In this document: positions 2,917-63,181 of the stretch, piece by piece
How the letters are laid out: each line of letters opens with the position of its first letter
How positions within the stretch are numbered: position 1 is the first letter of the stretch
The notes under the pieces: model-generated
What the model was told of the DNA's origin: nothing
Database searches by the model: none
Seen by the model: only the letters and a program-made list of their open reading frames with translations
Made by a program: the position numbers and the translations under genes
Assembly (NCBI GenBank): GCA_934757945.1
Contig: CAKVLT010000001.1
Coordinates: 4,612-68,611 of the forward strand
Source: an uncultured Bulleidia sp.
Lineage (GTDB): Bacteria > Bacillota_I > Bacilli_A > Erysipelotrichales > Erysipelotrichaceae
DNA: 64,000 nt
Reading direction: 5' to 3'

Positions 2917-3080
2917 ACAAATACTCCTTCCTGTACCAATTATTCTTTATATATGGTTTGTTATAGCATATCCCCCCCAAAAAGGGATGACAGAAATGTT
3001 TTAACAAATGCAATACTTTATCTGACATTTTTTAACAAGTTTCTAACGTTACTTTTTTGCATTCGAGATGTAACAAAAAG

Positions 3081-17594: not shown

Positions 17595-18185
17595 TTAATC
17601 CTTTGGTGCAATCTTCTGTAAGACACCGTTAGACTTTAATCTAGGATAAATTGCCACATATAACGCTGAAGCAATTACAATAGCCAGTACAGCATTCACA
17701 CCTGTTGTAACAAATTTAGCCACTGCTAAATACGTAGCTGCTTTTTCAGCATTTCCCAAAGCAATCAAATAATATAAATAAGAGATAACTGGCTCACCAA
17801 TCATGTTAAATACCATACCACCTGTGCAGGACAGTACAACACTTCTGTATAAGTCTTTACCTGTCTTCTTTGTGATGTGGAATACTTTATGTGCAAGCAA
17901 ACCGGTCACAAGTCCAATACCCATTTTCAGAATCAATGTTTTTGGTGCTACTGTAATATATACAGGATCTAACAGATCACCGATGCCCATACCTACAGCA
18001 CCTGCAATACCACCAGGCACCCCACCCAGCAATAATGCGGCCAATACACAGAATGTGTTTCCCAGATGGAATGAAGTAAAGCCAACTGGTGTTGGAATCT
18101 TAATCTGTAAGAAAGTGAAAGATACATAACATAAAGCTATCATCAATGCTGTTACAGCAAGCTTCAAAGTTTTTTCGTTTTTCAT
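17595..18185 (-). CDS. ECF transporter substrate-specific (S) component, substrate unknown
   Basis: 196 aa with six transmembrane helices and a Gly-rich GGVPGGIAGAVGMGIGD loop. Size and topology fit the EcfS family. No ECF A/T genes are nearby. Confidence 0.7.
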   Translation of the reverse strand: MKNEKTLKLAVTALMIALCYVSFTFLQIKIPTPVGFTSFHLGNTFCVLAALLLGGVPGGIAGAVGMGIGDLLDPVYITVAPKTLILKMGIGLVTGLLAHKVFHITKKTGKDLYRSVVLSCTGGMVFNMIGEPVISYLYYLIALGNAEKAATYLAVAKFVTTGVNAVLAIVIASALYVAIYPRLKSNGVLQKIAPKD

Positions 18186-18281: not shown

Positions 18282-18824
18282 TTATTTTTGTCCTTGAATC
18301 ACCATCTCTACCTTAGGCACGACCATATTCCTGAGGCTTCTGTAAGTACTGGCAGTAGCCCAGATATATACACAACCTGTGAATAACGTCTGTAAGGTAG
18401 AAGCCATTTCTTTTTGACCAGTTTCTTTACACAGTTCTTCCAGATAGTAATAAAAAGGATGTCTTGCCGTACCAGTCCTTGTATTGATCATCTTCTGTAT
18501 AACATTGAGATACAGTGCTCTTTTTACCACCTCAACCCCCATCTCTTCATAATAAGAAGCTAAAGAAGAAAACAGGAATACTACTTTTTCCTGATATGTA
18601 GAATACACATCTACTTCCTGACGTAATTCTTCTATATTCATTTTAGAAGAATCAAACTGTTCCAGGATAATATCATCTTTACTGTCAAAGTAATAGTAAA
18701 AGGTATTTTTGGAAATATTCGCAGCCTTAGCTATATCAATGACCGTCACCGCATCAAATCCTTTTTCTTTAAATAAAGCCAGTGCTTTATACCGAATTTC
18801 CTTTTTCTTTTCTGTCCCCTTCAT
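18282..18824 (-). CDS. TetR/AcrR-family transcriptional regulator
   Basis: 180 aa with an N-terminal TetR HTH (YKALALFKEKGFDAVTVIDIAKAANISKNTFYYYF). Confidence 0.9.
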   Translation of the reverse strand: MKGTEKKKEIRYKALALFKEKGFDAVTVIDIAKAANISKNTFYYYFDSKDDIILEQFDSSKMNIEELRQEVDVYSTYQEKVVFLFSSLASYYEEMGVEVVKRALYLNVIQKMINTRTGTARHPFYYYLEELCKETGQKEMASTLQTLFTGCVYIWATASTYRSLRNMVVPKVEMVIQGQK

Positions 18825-51649: not shown

Positions 51650-52400
51650 CAAATCATGACCACCCGTGAAACGGGTGGTTTGCTCTAAGGCTATAAGCCT
51701 TTTATCACCAGCCAATGTCTTAAGGCATTGGCTTTTCCATTATGTAATGTCAAAGCCACCTTTGCATTTGTAACTATTACCGGTCGTTAACGACCTGTTT
51801 ATCCTTGTTTGCTTTCCTTATTACTATATCTTTCCCAAACGGATCTTCATATTCTTTCACGCTTAATTTATCTTTTGCTATATCATCTTTCTCTTGTTCT
51901 CGTATATATTTTCGAACCGTTGCTTCATTCAGTCCTATTGTACTTACATAATATCCGTCTGCCCAAAAGTGTCTGTTCCCATACTTGTATTTCAAGTTGG
52001 CATGATATTCAAAAATCATCATTGCTGACTTTCCCTTTAAATATCCCATAAATGAAGACACTGACATCTTTGGAGGGATAGATACCAATATATGTACATG
52101 ATCTGGCATCATATGTCCTTCTATGATTTCTACCCCTTTATACTTACACAGCTTCTTAAAGTATCCTGCTATATCCTTTCTTAATTGGTTATAGATTACT
52201 TTTCTTCTATATTTTGGGGTGAATACTATGTGATATCTTGTATAATACTTCGTGTGTGCCAATGAATCATATTTTTTGGCCATTTGCGTCCTACCTCTCT
52301 TTCATAGTGACCTTGACAATCTCTATGTTAGTTCTGTAGGACGCTTTTTTCTATACGAAGCGCCTGCCTTCCACCTGCCTAGCAGGTGGTTTTTCTGTTT
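51650..52400 (-). mobile_element. IS200/IS605-family insertion sequence carrying tnpA only; ends are approximate
   Basis: A Y1/HuH transposase is flanked by clusters of perfect short hairpins. On the right end these are ACCACCCG..CGGGTGGT, AGCCAATG..CATTGGCT and GGTCGTTAACGACC. On the left end they are GCGTCCTAC..GTAGGACGC and CCACCTGC..GCAGGTGG. Such hairpin clusters are typical of IS200 ends. Confidence 0.55.
51777..52283 (-). CDS. tnpA: IS200/IS605-family transposase TnpA (Y1 HuH)
   Basis: 168 aa with the HuH motif in HVHILVSIPPK and the catalytic Tyr region GYYVSTIG. Confidence 0.85.
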   Translation of the reverse strand: MAKKYDSLAHTKYYTRYHIVFTPKYRRKVIYNQLRKDIAGYFKKLCKYKGVEIIEGHMMPDHVHILVSIPPKMSVSSFMGYLKGKSAMMIFEYHANLKYKYGNRHFWADGYYVSTIGLNEATVRKYIREQEKDDIAKDKLSVKEYEDPFGKDIVIRKANKDKQVVNDR

Positions 52401-57351: not shown

Positions 57352-57387
57352 TAAAAGAAAGAAAACAGGATAGTTGCCTATCCTGTA
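57352..57387 (-). terminator. terminator after the flavin reductase gene
   Basis: ACAGGATAG/CTATCCTGT stem followed by TTTTCTTTCTTTT on the minus strand. Confidence 0.6.
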
Positions 57388-57400
57388 AAGAAATCAATGA

Positions 57401-59284
57401 TTATTTAGCATTTTCTGCTGCGTTTGTACCGGCAATTCTACCAAATACTACGAAGTCAGCAACTGCATTACCACCAAGTCTGTTAGCACCGTGAACACCA
57501 CCTGTGACTTCACCTGCTGCATACAGACCAGAGATAACATCACCATCTTTATTTAATACACATGTATTTGTATCAATCTTCAGACCACCCATTGTGTGAT
57601 GAACACCTGGCTGAACCTTAATTGCATAATAAGGAGCTGTATCCAGCTTATTTGTGAAAGCTGTTCTTCCGAATTCTGCATCAGACTTGTTATCCACACA
57701 TGTATTCCATGTTTCCATTGTCTTTGCGAATGTATCAGCATCTGCTTCCATAGCTTCAGCTAATTCTTCATAAGTTTTACCTGTTACAGCATAACCCTTG
57801 TCAATGTAACCCTGAACAACTGCACTTGCATCAGCCATAGCCTGGTCAACAACTAACCATGCAAAGCCGCCTTCCTGTTCATTTTCAGCAGCAGAAACTA
57901 CGTCTCTTGTACCAACTTCATCAGTGAATCTTTCACCCTTGGAGTTAACTAAGATAGCACCGTCTCCACGAAGACCTTCTGTAATTAATACAGCGTTGCT
58001 GCCTTCAACATGAACTGTTGGATGTAACTGAATTTGATCCATATCAACTGTAGCAGCATTAACATCATCAGCAGTAGCCATTGTGATACCCTGACCTAAG
58101 ATACCTGCAGCATTTGTTGTAATGTATCCTTTTAATGCAGGATTCTGTTCAGATACCATATCATTGTTAGCACCGAAACCACCTGTAGCAAGAACAACGG
58201 ACTTAGCATTGATTGTAACTTTGTTACCTGTCTTACCTTCTGCTTCTACACCTGCAGCCTTACCATCTTTCATGATAATCTTGTTAGCAGTAGTGTTGTA
58301 GAATACTTCAACACCTCTGTCTTCTACAGTTTTTTCGAGAATTGGAACAATGTAAGAACCAACAGAAATAACTTTACCGTCATCATTTACAGGACGATGA
58401 ATTCTCTTAACAGCAGCACCACCGAACTGACCTACGTTCTTAAGATCAGCACCGATTGTGGATAGCCATTCAATAGCATCAGCGGAATTACCTGCAAGTG
58501 TCTTAACAAGCTCAATATTGTTAACACCTTTACCACCAATCATTGTATCTAATTCCATTAATTCAACAGAATCAAAATATCCTGTAGGATTTGCCTGATA
58601 AGCTTCCCACTGTTCTTTAACTGTAGATGCTAAAGCCTGAATATCTGCATTGTCAGCATATTTTTCAGCAGATTTTAATGTTTTCTCTACACCAGCGGAT
58701 TCTTCGAATTCGTTGTTATCCTGATATACTGTCTTTGCAGCGTTCATACCACCTGTAGCACGTACGGAGTTACCACCGGCAACTTCCTGGCTTTCCAGAA
58801 TAACTACGCTCTTACCTGCATCAGCAGCTGTAATAGCAGCAGTCATACCTGCTCCACCGGCACCTACGACAACAACATCAACGTCCTTTTCAACGTCTTC
58901 TTCTTTTTCGCCTTCAGCAGCTGTCTGATAATCTTCTGGATTCAGACCTGCAGCTTTGATTGCTTCTGCAGCAGCGGATTTGATAGCATCACTTGTAATT
59001 GTAGCTGTAGCTACACCGTCAACGTTAATGGAATTGGCTTTGACCATTTCATCAGGCATCTTTTCAATAGCTTTTGTACCGATACCTTCTGTTTCGTTAT
59101 CACCCTGTACTTTAACATCTGTAATAACGGAATCTTTGAGTGTGATGGTTACTGTAACATCTCCTCCCATGCCTTTTGCAGTACCGGAGAATTCACCAGA
59201 AACACCACCACTTGCCTTCTGACCACAAGCTACTAAACTGGCAGCCACGACAGCGGACAAAAATAGTTTAGAAATTTTGTTCAT
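57401..59284 (-). CDS. lipoprotein flavin reductase: N-terminal FMN-binding domain plus fumarate-reductase/flavocytochrome-c-type FAD domain (FrdA/UrdA-like extracellular reductase)
   Basis: Signal peptide and lipobox (LVACG). The FMN_bind domain carries a candidate flavinylation motif DGVATATITS. The FAD domain shows GAGGAG, and it retains the fumarate-reductase active-site signatures QLHPT, LRGDGAIL, HHTMGG and GANRLGGNA. Confidence 0.8.
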   Translation of the reverse strand: MNKISKLFLSAVVAASLVACGQKASGGVSGEFSGTAKGMGGDVTVTITLKDSVITDVKVQGDNETEGIGTKAIEKMPDEMVKANSINVDGVATATITSDAIKSAAAEAIKAAGLNPEDYQTAAEGEKEEDVEKDVDVVVVGAGGAGMTAAITAADAGKSVVILESQEVAGGNSVRATGGMNAAKTVYQDNNEFEESAGVEKTLKSAEKYADNADIQALASTVKEQWEAYQANPTGYFDSVELMELDTMIGGKGVNNIELVKTLAGNSADAIEWLSTIGADLKNVGQFGGAAVKRIHRPVNDDGKVISVGSYIVPILEKTVEDRGVEVFYNTTANKIIMKDGKAAGVEAEGKTGNKVTINAKSVVLATGGFGANNDMVSEQNPALKGYITTNAAGILGQGITMATADDVNAATVDMDQIQLHPTVHVEGSNAVLITEGLRGDGAILVNSKGERFTDEVGTRDVVSAAENEQEGGFAWLVVDQAMADASAVVQGYIDKGYAVTGKTYEELAEAMEADADTFAKTMETWNTCVDNKSDAEFGRTAFTNKLDTAPYYAIKVQPGVHHTMGGLKIDTNTCVLNKDGDVISGLYAAGEVTGGVHGANRLGGNAVADFVVFGRIAGTNAAENAK

Positions 59285-59285
59285 T
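58925..59285. repeat. copy A of a roughly 350-bp near-identical duplication (5' end of the reductase gene plus its ribosome-binding site)
   Basis: Almost base-for-base identical to 59625..59990. The mirror-strand ORFs at 58956..59222 and 59649..59990 translate to identical 84-aa stretches. Confidence 0.85.
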
Positions 59286-59617
59286 TTTCCTCCAAAAACA
59301 CTTCAACTGAGTGCACATAAACTATAACACACTCAACTTTTTCTACAAGAGAATTGTGAAAGAATTGTGAAAAAGCATGATAAAAAGTATTCAAAATTTG
59401 TCATCTGTATTGCAGATTTTCTACCATTCAAATAACCCTCGCACACCTGTATTTTCTTTCCCTTTGAATATTTTATTTTTCTTCCCATAATAAAAAATCC
59501 CACCGTTGTACTTCCACACAGATGAAATTTTTTTAATTTATTCGTGTGTCTACTTTAGTGGGATTGTATCAATAAACTGTGTTTTTTCAAGCTTTAGAAA
59601 CAGGTAACAACTGAATC

Positions 59618-59974
59618 TTAATAATTATTAGGATCCAGACCTGCAGCTTTGATAGCTTCTTCAGCTGCGGATTTGATAGCATCACTTGTAATTGTAGCTG
59701 TAGCTACACCGTCAACGTTAATGGAATTGGCTTTGACCATTTCATCAGGCATCTTTTCAATAGCTTTTGTACCGATACCTTCTGTTTCGTTATCACCCTG
59801 TACTTTAACATCTGTAATAACGGAATCTTTGAGTGTGATGGTTACTGTAACATCTCCTCCCATGCCTTTTGCAGTACCAGAGAATTCACCAGAAACACCT
59901 TCGGTTTTTTTCTGTCCACAGGCTACCAGACTGGATACCATAACAGCAGATAAAAATAATTTAGAAATTTTGTT
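59618..59974 (-). CDS. stand-alone FMN-binding-domain lipoprotein, a recent duplicate of the reductase N-terminal domain
   Basis: MNKISKLFLSAVMVSSLVACG then an FMN_bind domain that is at least 95 percent identical to residues 1-110 of the 627-aa reductase. A GGAGG Shine-Dalgarno is present. The protein ends right after the domain. Confidence 0.75.
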   Translation of the reverse strand, partial: NKISKLFLSAVMVSSLVACGQKKTEGVSGEFSGTAKGMGGDVTVTITLKDSVITDVKVQGDNETEGIGTKAIEKMPDEMVKANSINVDGVATATITSDAIKSAAEEAIKAAGLDPNNY

Positions 59975-59990
59975 CATTTTTCCTCCATAA
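59625..59990. repeat. copy B of the roughly 350-bp duplication
   Basis: See copy A. Confidence 0.85.
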
Positions 59991-60178
59991 AATTCTTTTA
60001 TATACTTCATACTATACCATACCTTTTTTTTACCACAAGACGTCAAAAATCATTTTCCACACAATAGACGCATAGTTGTTATCAGCTCCTCATTCCTTGC
60101 AGAAGAACAGATGTAAACAGGCATTTTTCCGTTTCATTTTAAATAAGACCTGAAACCCCTTACATCAATAGCGTGCTA

Positions 60179-60207
60179 TTGACAGTGTGCTGTTATTTTA
60201 TAATAAT
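60179..60207 (+). promoter_or_regulatory. sigma-A-type promoter for the activase/dehydratase-like genes
   Basis: TTGACA, a 17-nt spacer, then AATAAT, about 40 nt upstream of a GGAGG Shine-Dalgarno and the ATG at 60248. Confidence 0.55.
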
Positions 60208-60247
60208 ACATAAGTATTTTTATAAAATATATACTTGGAGGAACACT

Positions 60248-63181
60248 ATGCGTATTGGATTAGATATTGGTTCTACAACAATTAAGTGTGTAGTACTGGA
60301 TGATACAAATAACATCCTGTATTCCTGCTACGAAAGACATTTCAGTCATATTGTCTCTAAATCTAAAGAGATATTACATAAAATTGAAAACACCTTTCTT
60401 CATGGTGAGAAAGCTGTAATTGCCATATCAGGTTCTGCCGGTATGGGACTGTCACAAAGCTGCGATGTGGAATTTGTTCAGGAAGTCTATGCAGAAAAAG
60501 TAGCCACTTCCATTTATCACCCTGAAACAGACTGTATTATCGAACTTGGCGGAGAAGATGCCAAAATTCTTTTCCTGACCAACGGGGTGGAAGTACGGAT
60601 GAATGGTTCATGTGCAGGTGGTACAGGTGCCTTTATAGACCAGATGGCTGCTTTGTTAAAAATGAGTGCAGAAGAAATGAATATTGTTGCTTTGCAGGCA
60701 GATCACACATATACCATTGCGTCCAGATGTGGTGTATTTGCAAAAACAGATGTACAGCCACTGATTAATCAAGGTGCTAAACCTTCTAATATTGCCGCCA
60801 GTATTTATCAGGCAGTTGTCAATCAGACGATTGCAGGATTGTCCCAGGGACGTACCATCAAAGGAAATGTATTGTACCTGGGTGGTCCTTTAACCTTTGC
60901 CACATGTCTCAGAAATACTTTTGACGCTACATTACATCTTCATGGGGTATGTCCGGATAATTCTCTGTACTATGTAGCTCTTGGTGCAGCTTTATATGCG
61001 AATAAAGAGGTCAACCTTTCTGAAGTGTGTAAGAAAATAGATGTCTATGATTCTGTTTCAACTTATGCTTCCTTGCCTCCACTGTTTGAGAATCGAGAAC
61101 AATACTGGAAGTTTCATAACAGACATGCAAAAGCACATGTACCTGTAGTTCCTTTTAATGAAACCTGCGGACCGGTACACATTGGCATTGACTCCGGTTC
61201 CACAACCATCAAAATTGTTGTAATCAATACTAGAGGAGAGTTGTTATATAAGCGGTATGAACCTAACGATGGTAATCCTTTGCCTGTAGTTAAAGAAACA
61301 CTGATTGCTCTTTACAGGCAACACCCTCACCTGCATATTCTTTCTGTTACCACAACTGGATATGGAGAAGCTTTGATGAAGAAAGCTTTCCATTGTGATT
61401 ATGGAGTAGTAGAAACCGTTGCACATTTTACTGCAGCAAAACACTTTATGCCTGATGTGGATTTTATTATCGATATAGGTGGGCAGGATATGAAGTGCTT
61501 CAAAATAGAAAATAATGCTATTTCCGATATTTTTCTGAATGAAGCATGTTCTTCAGGGTGTGGCAGTTTCCTGCAGACATTTGCACAGGCAATGGGGTAC
61601 AGTGTAGAAGAATTTGCCATGCAGGGATTATTTGCCAGACATCCTGTAGATTTAGGTTCCAGATGTACTGTATTCATGAATTCTTCTGTGAAACAGGCCC
61701 AGAAAGACGGTGCTCAGCTGGATTGTATTTCCGCAGGTTTATCACTGTCTGTTGTCAAAAATGCCTTGTATAAAGTCATACGAGTCTATTCACCAGAACA
61801 GTTGGGAAAACATATTGTAGTACAGGGGGGAACTTTCTATAATGAGGCTGTTTTACGTGCATTTGAACAGGAGATGGGGGTCGATGTTGTAAGACCTGAC
61901 ATTGCCGGTCTGATGGGCGCTTATGGTGCAGCCTTATATGGTGCTTCAAAGAGTGCTGTTTCTTCCACTTCAGGTGTTTTATCTTTGAAAGAATTGCTTT
62001 CTTTTTCCATGAAGAATCAGAGTATAACCTGTCAGGGATGTGGAAATCATTGCTCTTTGACTATCAACACATTTTCCGATGGTGAAAGACTTGTTTCAGG
62101 GAACAAATGCGAAAAACCTGTTACAGGAAAAGCAAGTGATGATTCTTTAAATCTGTATGCCTATAAAATGCAGTCTCTTCTTGAATATGCAAATACTAAG
62201 ACAGAAGGAACCAGAGGAAAGATTGGTATTCCACTTGTATTAAATATGTATGAACTGTTGCCTTTCTGGCATGCTTTCTTCACTTCTTTAGGCTTTCAGG
62301 TAGTTGTCTCTCCTGTAAGTTCTCATAAGTTATATCAGGATGGGCAAAATACGATTCCAAGCGATACAGCATGTTATCCAGCTAAAATGACCCATGGACA
62401 TATAGCCTGGCTGTGCAGTCAAGAAGACGTACATACCATCTTCTATCCATGTATGACCTATAACTTTGATGAACATCTTGGAGATAATCATTACAATTGT
62501 CCTGTAGTCGCTTATTATCCTGAAGTACTGGCAAATAACATTCCTGATCTGAAGAAAAAAGATTTCTTATATGAGTATATCAACCTCTCAGATGAAAAAG
62601 AATTCAGAAAGCATTTTCCTGGAGTCTTCAGAAAACATTTTCCTTCCGTTTCCTATAAAGAAATAGACAATGCAATCACTGATGGATATGCAGAATACAA
62701 GAGTCACATGGAAGCAATTCGCCGTAAAGGAAAAGAAATCATACAAAAAGCCCGTCAGTGCCATAAACAGATTATTATTTTAGCCGGAAGACCGTATCAT
62801 GTCGATCCTGAAATTAATCATGGTATCGACAAACTGATCATCAGACAAAACGCTGCTATCATTACTGAAGACAGTATCAGTGATATTCTTCCTAAATTTG
62901 AAACTTCTGTTTTAAATCAGTGGACATATCATTCACGCCTATATGCAGCTGCAAAGTATTGCACTACCCAAAAAGACATGAATCTGATTCAGCTAGTTTC
63001 TTTTGGATGTGGACTTGATGCCATCACAACAGATGAAACAAGAGAAATTCTGCAGGCAAAAGGAAAATTATATACACAGCTAAAAATAGATGAAGTCACT
63101 AATCTTGGAGCTGTCAACATACGTATTCGTTCCTTGTTTGCAGCACTTGAAGAACAGCAAGAGGAGGAAAGCCAGTCATGA
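60248..63181 (+). CDS. giant fusion protein: two tandem BadF/BadG/BcrA/BcrD-type ATPase (activase) domains plus a C-terminal DUF2229/HgdB-like dehydratase-component domain (YjiL/YjiM-like)
   Basis: Start MRIGLDIGSTTIKCV, an acetate/sugar-kinase-fold ATPase. A second copy begins VHIGIDSGSTTIKIV. The C-terminal region of about 400 aa has CQGCGNHC and further Cys. Confidence 0.75.
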   Translation: MRIGLDIGSTTIKCVVLDDTNNILYSCYERHFSHIVSKSKEILHKIENTFLHGEKAVIAISGSAGMGLSQSCDVEFVQEVYAEKVATSIYHPETDCIIELGGEDAKILFLTNGVEVRMNGSCAGGTGAFIDQMAALLKMSAEEMNIVALQADHTYTIASRCGVFAKTDVQPLINQGAKPSNIAASIYQAVVNQTIAGLSQGRTIKGNVLYLGGPLTFATCLRNTFDATLHLHGVCPDNSLYYVALGAALYANKEVNLSEVCKKIDVYDSVSTYASLPPLFENREQYWKFHNRHAKAHVPVVPFNETCGPVHIGIDSGSTTIKIVVINTRGELLYKRYEPNDGNPLPVVKETLIALYRQHPHLHILSVTTTGYGEALMKKAFHCDYGVVETVAHFTAAKHFMPDVDFIIDIGGQDMKCFKIENNAISDIFLNEACSSGCGSFLQTFAQAMGYSVEEFAMQGLFARHPVDLGSRCTVFMNSSVKQAQKDGAQLDCISAGLSLSVVKNALYKVIRVYSPEQLGKHIVVQGGTFYNEAVLRAFEQEMGVDVVRPDIAGLMGAYGAALYGASKSAVSSTSGVLSLKELLSFSMKNQSITCQGCGNHCSLTINTFSDGERLVSGNKCEKPVTGKASDDSLNLYAYKMQSLLEYANTKTEGTRGKIGIPLVLNMYELLPFWHAFFTSLGFQVVVSPVSSHKLYQDGQNTIPSDTACYPAKMTHGHIAWLCSQEDVHTIFYPCMTYNFDEHLGDNHYNCPVVAYYPEVLANNIPDLKKKDFLYEYINLSDEKEFRKHFPGVFRKHFPSVSYKEIDNAITDGYAEYKSHMEAIRRKGKEIIQKARQCHKQIIILAGRPYHVDPEINHGIDKLIIRQNAAIITEDSISDILPKFETSVLNQWTYHSRLYAAAKYCTTQKDMNLIQLVSFGCGLDAITTDETREILQAKGKLYTQLKIDEVTNLGAVNIRIRSLFAALEEQQEEESQS

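Follow-up and report, generated by a model that had tools for sequence, protein, structure and literature searches.

The DNA examined here, called the window, is a stretch of 64,000 nucleotides (nt) from an uncultured Bulleidia sp., and two of its 56 open reading frames (ORFs) form a flavin reductase locus on the reverse strand. The long gene (57401..59284, -) codes for a lipoprotein of 627 amino acids (aa) in which an FMN_bind domain is joined to a FAD_binding_2 flavin reductase domain of the fumarate-reductase (flavocytochrome-c-like) class. The short gene (59618..59977, -) codes for a stand-alone FMN_bind lipoprotein of 119 aa and is a paralog of codons 1-119 of the long gene. It is likely that the locus holds an extracytoplasmic reductase together with an old tandem duplicate of its 5' end, that the duplicate was later gene-converted, and that the short protein is a probable carrier.

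Architecture and predicted chemistry of the reductase

The architecture of the long protein agreed with the first-pass annotation of this DNA, and was borne out by the ORF, the lipobox and profile matches from Pfam and NCBIfam. The N-terminus reads as a lipoprotein signal (MNKISKLFLSAVVAASLVAC) with the lipobox LVAC at aa 17-20, and Cys20 was conserved in at least 90% of 27 homologs; the extracytosolic location was read from the sequence and not from a signal-peptide predictor. The FMN_bind domain (aa 38-110; 58955..59173, -) matched PF04205 over the full length of the profile (1-77/77; E 7e-12, 46.2 bits against a cutoff of 22), and the FAD_binding_2 profile PF00890 matched with E 2e-81, split in two by an insertion. 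The long protein passed TIGR01813 "flavo_cyto_c" (455.6 bits, cutoff 285) and fell below the cutoff of the NCBIfam equivalog NF005064 "flavocytochrome c" (482.8 bits against 542), a shortfall that coincides with the insertion by which the match is broken in two.

The insertion of about 45 aa (aa ~190-235; 58580..58717, -), with the sequence VYQDNNEFEESAGVEKTLKSAEKYADNADIQALASTVKEQWEAYQANPTGYF, sits between the first FAD-binding segment and the remainder of the FAD domain. It was seen relative to Fcc3 and UrdA in the split Fcc3 alignment, in the split Pfam match and in an AlphaFold2 (AF2) model, in which two helices were predicted at 195-209 and 213-231 (pLDDT 85-95). Residues D189, N191, E195, T202, L218, V222, Q225 and Y229 of this region were invariant across the subfamily and, as judged from the alignments, the insertion sets the subfamily of the long protein apart from Fcc3 and UrdA. 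A flexible linker would join the FMN_bind domain to the FAD domain in the lipid-anchored reductase.

The solved structures nearest to the long protein were Shewanella Fcc3 (E 1e-107, 39-41% identity) and then UrdA (E 6e-70), and Foldseek with the AF2 model returned the same order, with Fcc3 at the top (E 3e-41). All four signatures quoted in the first-pass annotation were found, namely QLHPT (419-423), LRGDGA (438-443), HHTMGG (562-567) and GANRLGG (599-605). Residue alignment to Fcc3 placed the fumarate-site residues in the FAD/catalytic domains (57407..58885, -), where H365, T377, E378, R381, R402, H504/H505 and the GANRLGG Arg of Fcc3 correspond to H421, T435, E436, R439, R460, H562/H563 and R602 of the long protein. 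These residues were invariant in 27 homologs (67-85% identity). The earlier proposal of a fumarate-type active site was upheld in this way, with the residue comparison to Fcc3 and UrdA and the structure model both pointing to Fcc3.

Specificity in UrdA depends on Tyr373, at the position of an Fcc3 His, and on a different helix that carries Asp388 (PMC7921117). The counterpart of Tyr373 in the long protein is His421 (of QLHPT), and the Asp388/Phe391 helix of UrdA is replaced by the fumarate-type helix L-I-T-E-G-L-R. Identity of the long protein as a UrdA urocanate reductase was considered and rejected on these residues. Because both specificity positions hold fumarate-type states, fumarate is the best prediction, and the reduction of fumarate to succinate is the most likely reaction on sequence grounds.

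A different substrate (urocanate, acrylate/methacrylate, cinnamates or itaconate), as in many gut flavin reductases, is a rather unlikely alternative that deserves to be weighed. Erysipelotrichaceae hold large reductase arsenals, and the substrate of gut flavin reductases is hard to predict from sequence and shifts with few changes (bioRxiv 10.1101/2022.12.26.521950); the long protein also lies under the NF005064 equivalog cutoff and has a conserved 45-aa insertion that is missing in Fcc3. Together with the moderate quality of the AF2 model (pLDDT 75, active-site loops of low confidence), the poor predictability of substrate counts against the assignment to fumarate. On the other side, the residues that in Fcc3 hold the two carboxylates of fumarate and supply the proton (both His, the Thr, both Arg and the Glu/Arg path) are all present and subfamily-invariant, and urocanate in particular is opposed by the change of Tyr373 to His and by the T-E-x-x-R helix in place of the Asp388 helix.

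The motif for covalent FMN attachment by ApbE is D-x-x-[S/T]-G-A-[S/T], with FMN on the last residue (PMC12052999). The predicted flavinylation motif of the long gene, D89-G-V-A-T-A-T95 (59000..59020, -), is a variant of it, and DGVATAT occurs at aa 89-95 of both the long and the short protein. The Asp, the Ala and the acceptor Thr are retained, whereas the [S/T] position has become Ala and the Gly position Thr, so that the covalent-FMN motif expected earlier is present with its acceptor but in a non-canonical form. The nearest orthologs (85% and 80% identity) have the canonical DGVSGAT. A census of about 95 homologs gave TGAT in 36, SGAT in 35, STAT in 7, ASAT in 6 and ATAT in 5; the ATAT and STAT variants (12 of ~95) are a minority, yet they recur in intact enzymes. 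The non-canonical motif may lower flavinylation, as a G-to-A change at the motif Gly does by about 50% in Klebsiella fumarate reductase (FRD) (PMC12052999). Thr95 of the FMN_bind domain is nevertheless predicted to be flavinylated by an ApbE/FmnB-type transferase encoded elsewhere.

Among characterised enzymes, FrdA (Lmo0355) of Listeria monocytogenes is a flavinylated extracellular fumarate reductase fed by an extracellular electron transfer (EET) chain (Light et al. 2019, summarised in PMC8238504). The long protein shares with FrdA an export/lipoprotein signal, one FMN_bind domain with a predicted ApbE-type Thr site and a FAD_binding_2 fumarate-reductase domain, in the same order. By analogy, a membrane donor would supply electrons to the covalent FMN, from which they would reach the FAD and then fumarate. 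The long protein differs from FrdA in lying under the NF005064 cutoff, in its extra insertion of ~45 aa and in having ATAT rather than SGAT; moreover, the Bulleidia reductase comes with a stand-alone paralog of its own FMN domain. Likeness to Fcc3/FccA (PDB 1qjd, 1d4c), the nearest solved structure, lies in the catalytic and substrate-binding residues, all of which are kept, but Fcc3 has an N-terminal tetra-haem domain in place of FMN_bind, is a soluble periplasmic protein and not a lipoprotein, and lacks the insertion. Shewanella UrdA (PDB 6t85-6t88) has the FMN_bind plus FAD arrangement, the carboxylate-binding Arg/His pair and the proton-donor Arg in common with the long protein, while it differs in the specificity residues (Tyr373 against His421; the Asp388/Phe391 helix against T-E-G-L-R) and gives the weaker match. 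FMN_bind-containing fumarate-reductase-like proteins have been counted at 3070 in 1236 genomes (PMC8238504). A search of the literature on Bulleidia for fumarate reductase or flavin returned nothing relevant, and the locus would add a probable extracellular fumarate reductase to a Bulleidia lineage seen in Hadza and other metagenome assemblies.

Mosaic identity, gene conversion and age of the duplicate

The short gene was read as an ORF from an ATG at 59977 that matches the start of the long gene. Its product has the lipobox LVAC and a complete FMN_bind domain (E 9e-14) with no further domain, and the profile search and the ORF showed an intact gene, free of frameshifts, for a complete lipoprotein of the FMN_bind type, in agreement with the earlier description of an independent FMN-binding lipoprotein. 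The orthologs of the short protein are P0121 (97%) and P0122 (85%). The first-pass annotation had placed a near-perfect duplicate, including its ribosome-binding site (RBS), about 340 bp upstream of the long gene. The gap between the two genes is 333 bp, and the alignment confirmed that the RBS lies within the duplicated stretch, with a promoter-like -35 and extended -10 copied too; the identity of the copies is a mosaic and not uniformly near-perfect.

Alignment of the two DNA copies gave 342 identical positions out of 373 (92%; 360 coding and 13 upstream nt), and the wording of a near-perfect duplicate could not be kept. Coding nt 1-80 were identical at 61 of 80 positions (76%), coding nt 81-315 at 233 of 235 (99%) and coding nt 316-360 at 36 of 45 (80%); the difference between flanks and core was significant (Fisher P = 3e-12). 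The Nei-Gojobori synonymous divergence (dS) between the short and long genes of the window was 1.32 in codons 1-27, 0.037 in codons 28-105 and 0.25 in the tail. The signal-peptide and lipobox segment of the long gene (59225..59284, -) is accordingly old and unconverted, at dS 1.3 to the short copy.

Related loci of the same Bulleidia species were assigned to two clades, a sister clade A (L001 and L013-L018) and a clade B (the window, L019 and L020). The best genomic match of the window was L001, an uncultured Bulleidia metagenome-assembled genome (MAG) that is syntenic, with ~94% DNA identity in the flanks and a long protein 99% identical to that of the window. L001 has a short gene upstream of its long gene, with a core ~82% identical to its own long gene and a one-codon deletion. 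The six other clade-A loci that were read (L013-L018), several of them from Hadza samples, showed a core identity of 190-192/232 between short and long genes, and all had the same gene order: a divergent BcrAD_BadFG/DUF2229 gene, the short gene, the long gene, VTT/DedA, aldo-keto reductase and HAD. The unconverted 118-aa short protein P0122 was found in 118 contig blocks.

In their flanks, short genes grouped with short genes and long with long across the two clades. No synonymous difference separated the short gene of the window from that of the sister clade in codons 1-27, and in the signal-peptide and tail segments the divergence between the short and long genes of the window is as large as that between the sister-clade pair. 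A four-way comparison of the short and long genes of the window and L001 showed 20 short-type sites on the 5' side, in the signal-peptide segment, then ~40 consecutive informative sites at which the window short gene is of long type, and a return to short-type sites over the final ~45 nt. Three sites have a base common to the two window copies and absent from both L001 copies, which points to the long gene of the window's own lineage as the donor. The tract in the short gene extends over 59662..59900 at most and 59669..59851 at least (-) and corresponds to the long-gene segment 58969-59207. At the 17.7% paralog divergence of the unconverted clade, the binomial probability of two or fewer differences in 235 nt is 2e-17. 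A near-identical tract, diverged and paralog-specific borders and unconverted orthologs in a sister lineage were all found, and from these comparisons the near-identity is read as a long-to-short gene-conversion tract of 183-239 bp over an old paralog.

The first-pass annotation had called the short gene freshly duplicated and the event very recent, with the differences then being new mutations in a copy newly made from the long gene. The two differing sites in the 235-nt core and the identical RBS and first codons would fit such a partial duplication, but the copies differ at 19 of the 80 coding nt at the 5' end and at 9 of the 45 at the 3' end, and the differences in the signal peptide are mostly synonymous (dS 1.3). 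The flank states are moreover common to the short gene of the sister clade, whose flanking DNA is ~94% identical, and the core of that gene is 82% identical to its own long gene (dS ~0.85). With orthologous, diverged copies in both clades, a recent origin is excluded, and a fresh duplication has a negligible chance of being correct. Rescue of this idea by a chimera in clade A is unlikely, given that P0122 occurs in 118 contig blocks from many samples. Near-identical neighbouring paralogs are thus not datable as recent without checking their flanks and sister strains.

The near-identical core could also have come from collapsed or chimeric reads of two repeats or strains, since the closest record to the window is a MAG, the window itself is probably MAG-derived, and repeats of ~235 nt can be mis-joined by short-read assemblers. 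The same 119-aa allele, spacer and tract edges were, however, present in L019 and L020, which come from different samples and have the 333-nt spacer and tract boundaries of the window with a core identity of 231/235. The converted 119-aa type P0121 was found in about six contigs, and its cluster holds 12 sequences from NCBI and ENA. Differences that arose after conversion vary by assembly, with 2 in the window against 4 in L019/L020. The same mosaic in three independent assemblies shows that it is not an assembly artefact, an explanation that is very improbable, and the shared tract points to one conversion event in the ancestor of clade B. The opposite polarity, with the diverged core of clade A as an imported state and clade B as ancestral, was tried and rejected: the clade-B flanks are old (dS 1.3) and match the clade-A short gene.

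For the origin of the paralog, the outgroup locus L012 (85% protein identity, syntenic, with the same BcrAD/DUF2229 neighbour) had no short gene, and neither had the orthologs L002 (79%) and L003 (71%). The unconverted short domain was closest to the Bulleidia long domain (82.6%) and next to that of L012 (75%), and the derived ATAT motif is common to the unconverted short domain and the Bulleidia long gene. Outgroup-like states were also seen in the unconverted short gene, namely AAEEA, GLDPK-Y and the -10 region TATGGTATAGT. The match of the outgroup's upstream region and 5' end to the long copy starts at -92; for the short copy it runs from -44 to codon ~119. In clade A, the sequence after the short-gene stop, TAG GATACAATAAGCATGCT, matched positions -118..-100 of the outgroup (TATACAATAAAAGCATGCT), which indicates a head-to-tail duplication of ~475 bp with its junction at codon 120.

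The course of events reconstructed from these comparisons begins with this ~475-bp tandem duplication in the ancestor of the species, after the split from the L012-type lineage, by which a second set of promoter, RBS and first ~120 codons arose. Codon 120 at the junction is now a stop (CAG to TAG/TAA), and the copy was retained for a long time under purifying selection until a conversion tract, fixed in clade B, brought the FMN_bind core back to ~99%. This order, from tandem duplication of promoter and 5' end with a junction stop, through purifying retention, to later homogenisation, makes the locus a population-backed, dated case of a stand-alone flavin carrier born from the electron-entry domain of an enzyme.

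Between the long and short genes of L001, Nei-Gojobori estimates were dS 0.84, nonsynonymous divergence (dN) 0.097 and dN/dS 0.12 (0.08 in the core), and the long genes of the two clades differed by dS 0.16. With 0.84 between paralogs against 0.16 between clades, the duplicate is several-fold older than the clade split. A dS near 1 is close to saturation, and earlier rounds of conversion could hide a still older duplication, which tells against reading this age closely. Three-point subtraction against L012 placed the amino-acid change mostly on the short branch (dN ~0.06 against ~0.01). Searches by tblastn and blastn-short detected no relics of the FAD domain above noise in the 333-nt spacer or in the 164-nt spacer of the sister clade, so the duplication was either partial from the start or its remainder has been erased.

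Duplication of the same domain was also seen in P0053, a metagenomic homolog of 737 aa (70% identity) with an independent in-frame tandem FMN_bind duplication in which the repeats of ~99 aa are near identical and both have DTVSGAT. This enzyme family has therefore seen at least two duplications of its FMN_bind domain, one that left the copy fused and one that set it free. P0053 suggests a duplication-prone domain, which bears on the origin of multi-flavinylated proteins. In L025 (3501-5380; a relative of Erysipelotrichaceae bacterium 7770_A6; six Logan contigs) a frameshift within the GAGGAG dinucleotide-binding motif breaks the orthologous reductase into two ORFs, one of 145 aa with FMN_bind and one of 481 aa with the FAD domain; this is either a pseudogene or a recurrent sequencing error.

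Retention and possible role of the short protein

The mature short protein aligned over 82/85 residues of PDB 8p2b (E 2e-9, low identity), which is "FMN4 domain 1", a single FMN domain of a multi-flavinylated protein (PMC10339131). As 8p2b was solved as its own chain, a module of the size of the short protein can fold alone, although 8p2b, with its canonical SGAT, was excised from a protein with four domains. The short protein is probably a flavinylated, membrane-tethered carrier of one flavin, which would share the donor and the flavin transferase with the enzyme's own domain, and it may serve the reductase or other acceptors as an electron relay in trans.

Fumarate-reductase-like clusters with a separate FMN-binding protein within two genes number 189 in 171 genomes (Meheust et al. 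2021, PMC8238504). The short gene resembles these clusters and Listeria PplA in that a reductase is accompanied by a small extracytosolic lipoprotein with FMN_bind, which is presumed to be flavinylated by ApbE and to carry electrons. The locus thus belongs to an already catalogued enzyme class and pairing and is no new system; compared with the catalogued clusters, the Bulleidia reductase retains its own FMN_bind domain, and the small protein is demonstrably its paralog. In Listeria, the EET locus consists of fmnB, ndh2, eetA, eetB and dmkA, and the gene for PplA, a protein with two FMN_bind domains, lies within it. The short protein has the lipoprotein signal and FMN_bind domain of PplA but is single-domain, with the variant DGVATAT, and its gene is not within an EET locus.

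Several observations weigh against a carrier role. None of the 56 ORFs of the window encodes ApbE, Ndh2, EetA/B or DmkA/quinone biosynthesis, and the first-pass annotation was right that the flavin transferase and Ndh2/EetAB genes are missing from it; with no partner genes in the window, the electron path is modelled on homologous systems alone, and the genes for the electron donor and the transferase would have to lie outside the window. L001 has an ISL3 element of 1708 bp after codon 5 of the short gene (L001 4293-6000), with a 452-aa DDE_Tnp_ISL3 transposase (E 1e-65), an 8-bp target duplication (AAAATTTC) and imperfect terminal inverted repeats (GGCTCTTCTAACATACATGTGGGTAA / GAACCTTCGAACATATGTGTGGGTAA). 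P0136 (117 aa, 2 contigs) is a clade-A variant of the short gene that lacks the flavinylation site through an internal deletion, which runs from just before the flavinylation Thr into the spacer and reads through to ...FFTILSQFSCRKS; the variant is either a loss-of-function allele that occurs in nature or a product of faulty assembly. From the ISL3 insertion and P0136, the short gene is conserved but not indispensable, at least in some strains. The end of the L001 insertion sequence (IS) supplies an in-frame ATG (MYVRRAKISKLF...) that would rebuild a plausible signal peptide for the short gene. No copy of this ISL3 element was present in the window.

The insertion, the deletion variant, the lack of EET partner genes nearby and a short-gene promoter that is short of one conserved TTTCACA unit would all suit a decaying by-product without function, the conservation of which is only apparent and due to repeated repair by conversion. 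Against such decay, the core in clade A is unconverted (82% identity) and still under constraint, with dN/dS ~0.08-0.12, and the short branch alone gave dN ~0.06 and dS ~0.3-0.7 in the three-point subtraction. The 118 codons contain no stop codon or frameshift, the clade-A gene occurs in more than 100 contig blocks, and lipobox, target Thr and complete Pfam domain have all been preserved. Decay is, on balance, an unlikely account of the short gene.

The PplA-like relay idea itself is plausible; purifying selection on the short gene favours it indirectly, whereas the ISL3 insertion in one strain and the lack of EET genes nearby weaken it. A stronger form, in which the free lipoprotein is a dedicated trans relay for the reductase and gene conversion keeps the relay and the built-in domain compatible in donor, transferase and docking surface, is a speculative proposal with few chances in its favour. 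If true, it would represent concerted evolution of an electron-transfer pair, with the relay born by "liberating" the electron-entry domain of the enzyme. It would also be a natural experiment on the lengthening of a one-flavin "wire", a first step toward the multi-flavinylated proteins that are likened to multi-haem cytochromes.

Among other stand-alone FMN_bind lipoproteins, P0129, P0133, P0134 and P0143 (~114-128 aa, from different lineages) share with P0122 a one-residue deletion, GMG-D, whereas most full-length reductases have GMGGD. The shared deletion either arose by convergence or hints at free FMN carriers as an older family. For recurrent pairing of other FMN_bind proteins of ~119 aa (P0143, P0129) with reductases, the contigs end at or beside transposases and were uninformative.

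Regulatory elements and neighbouring genes

Both genes have the RBS GGAGGAAAA (GGAGG). Cross-locus upstream alignment showed a promoter-like element, by consensus resemblance only, at the long gene (59321..59350, -), consisting of TTGTAG and the extended -10 TGTTATAGT. The duplicated RBS and promoter-like element of the short gene (59975..60040, -) comprise TTGTGG, TGGTATAGT and GGAGGAAAA, and the form shared by the two genes is TTGT[A/G]G with an extended -10 TG[T/G]TATAGT. The -10 region of the short gene is nearer to that of the outgroup L012 (TATGGTATAGT) than to that of the long gene. A terminator-like hairpin and T-run directly follow the long-gene stop (57365..57386, -), and RNA folding gave a long imperfect hairpin followed by a U-run, also terminator-like, between the short and long genes (59489..59565, -); at this position the sister clade has another terminator-like hairpin, of simpler form. 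With promoter-like and terminator-like elements of their own, the two genes look like separate transcription units.

A tandem repeat, TTTCACA-N4-TTTCACA with an 11-bp period, lies just upstream of the long-gene -35 (59355..59372, -). Exact matches to it were found at the same position in all Bulleidia loci (for example L013 4432-4449) and in L012 (3601-3618), where the surrounding spacer is only ~70% identical. The repeat is not enriched in the window, with 1 match against 1.8 expected at up to 2 mismatches. It may be a site for a response regulator or activator, for which its positional conservation alone is suggestive. One TTTCACA unit is gone from the short-gene promoter, and as the tandem form is found only at the long gene, the two genes may be regulated differently.

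The spacer measures 333 nt in clade B (59285-59617) and 163-164 nt in clade A (L013 4358-4520), and the two forms are homologous in the last ~90 nt only. In the part peculiar to clade B there are a promoter-like site (59563-59590; TTGAAA-16-TACAAT with TG), the long U-run hairpin and a 56-codon GTG ORF (59333-59503). Folding of the whole spacer showed no unusual stability (z = -1.3), the local terminator-like hairpin alone being of note. In the whole window Rfam detected one tRNA only; neither the spacer nor the region upstream of a RibU-like gene gave a riboswitch or known RNA.

The short gene and the reductase are neighboured by a BcrAD_BadFG/DUF2229 activase-like gene, a VTT/DedA membrane protein, an aldo-keto reductase and a HAD hydrolase. 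The first of these (60173-63181, +), divergent from the short gene, encodes ~980-1000 aa with two BcrAD_BadFG ATPase domains and DUF2229, resembling a 2-hydroxyacyl-CoA-dehydratase activase, and it keeps its place beside the reductase in L012. The 54 ORFs of the window other than the long and short genes are housekeeping, with purine, pyrimidine, proline and rhamnose pathways, PTS, Trk and others. The only flavin-related neighbour, ~40 kb off, is a RibU-like S component of an ECF riboflavin transporter (17595-18185, -), beside which lies a TetR-family regulator (18282-18824, -). No FMN riboswitch was found at the RibU-like gene at Rfam gathering thresholds. The transporter could supply flavin for extracytosolic flavinylation. 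About 5 kb downstream of the reductase locus there is an IS200-type Y1 transposase gene (51777-52283, -; PF01797, E 1e-39), and in L021 a similar Y1 transposase abuts an unrelated stand-alone FMN_bind gene.

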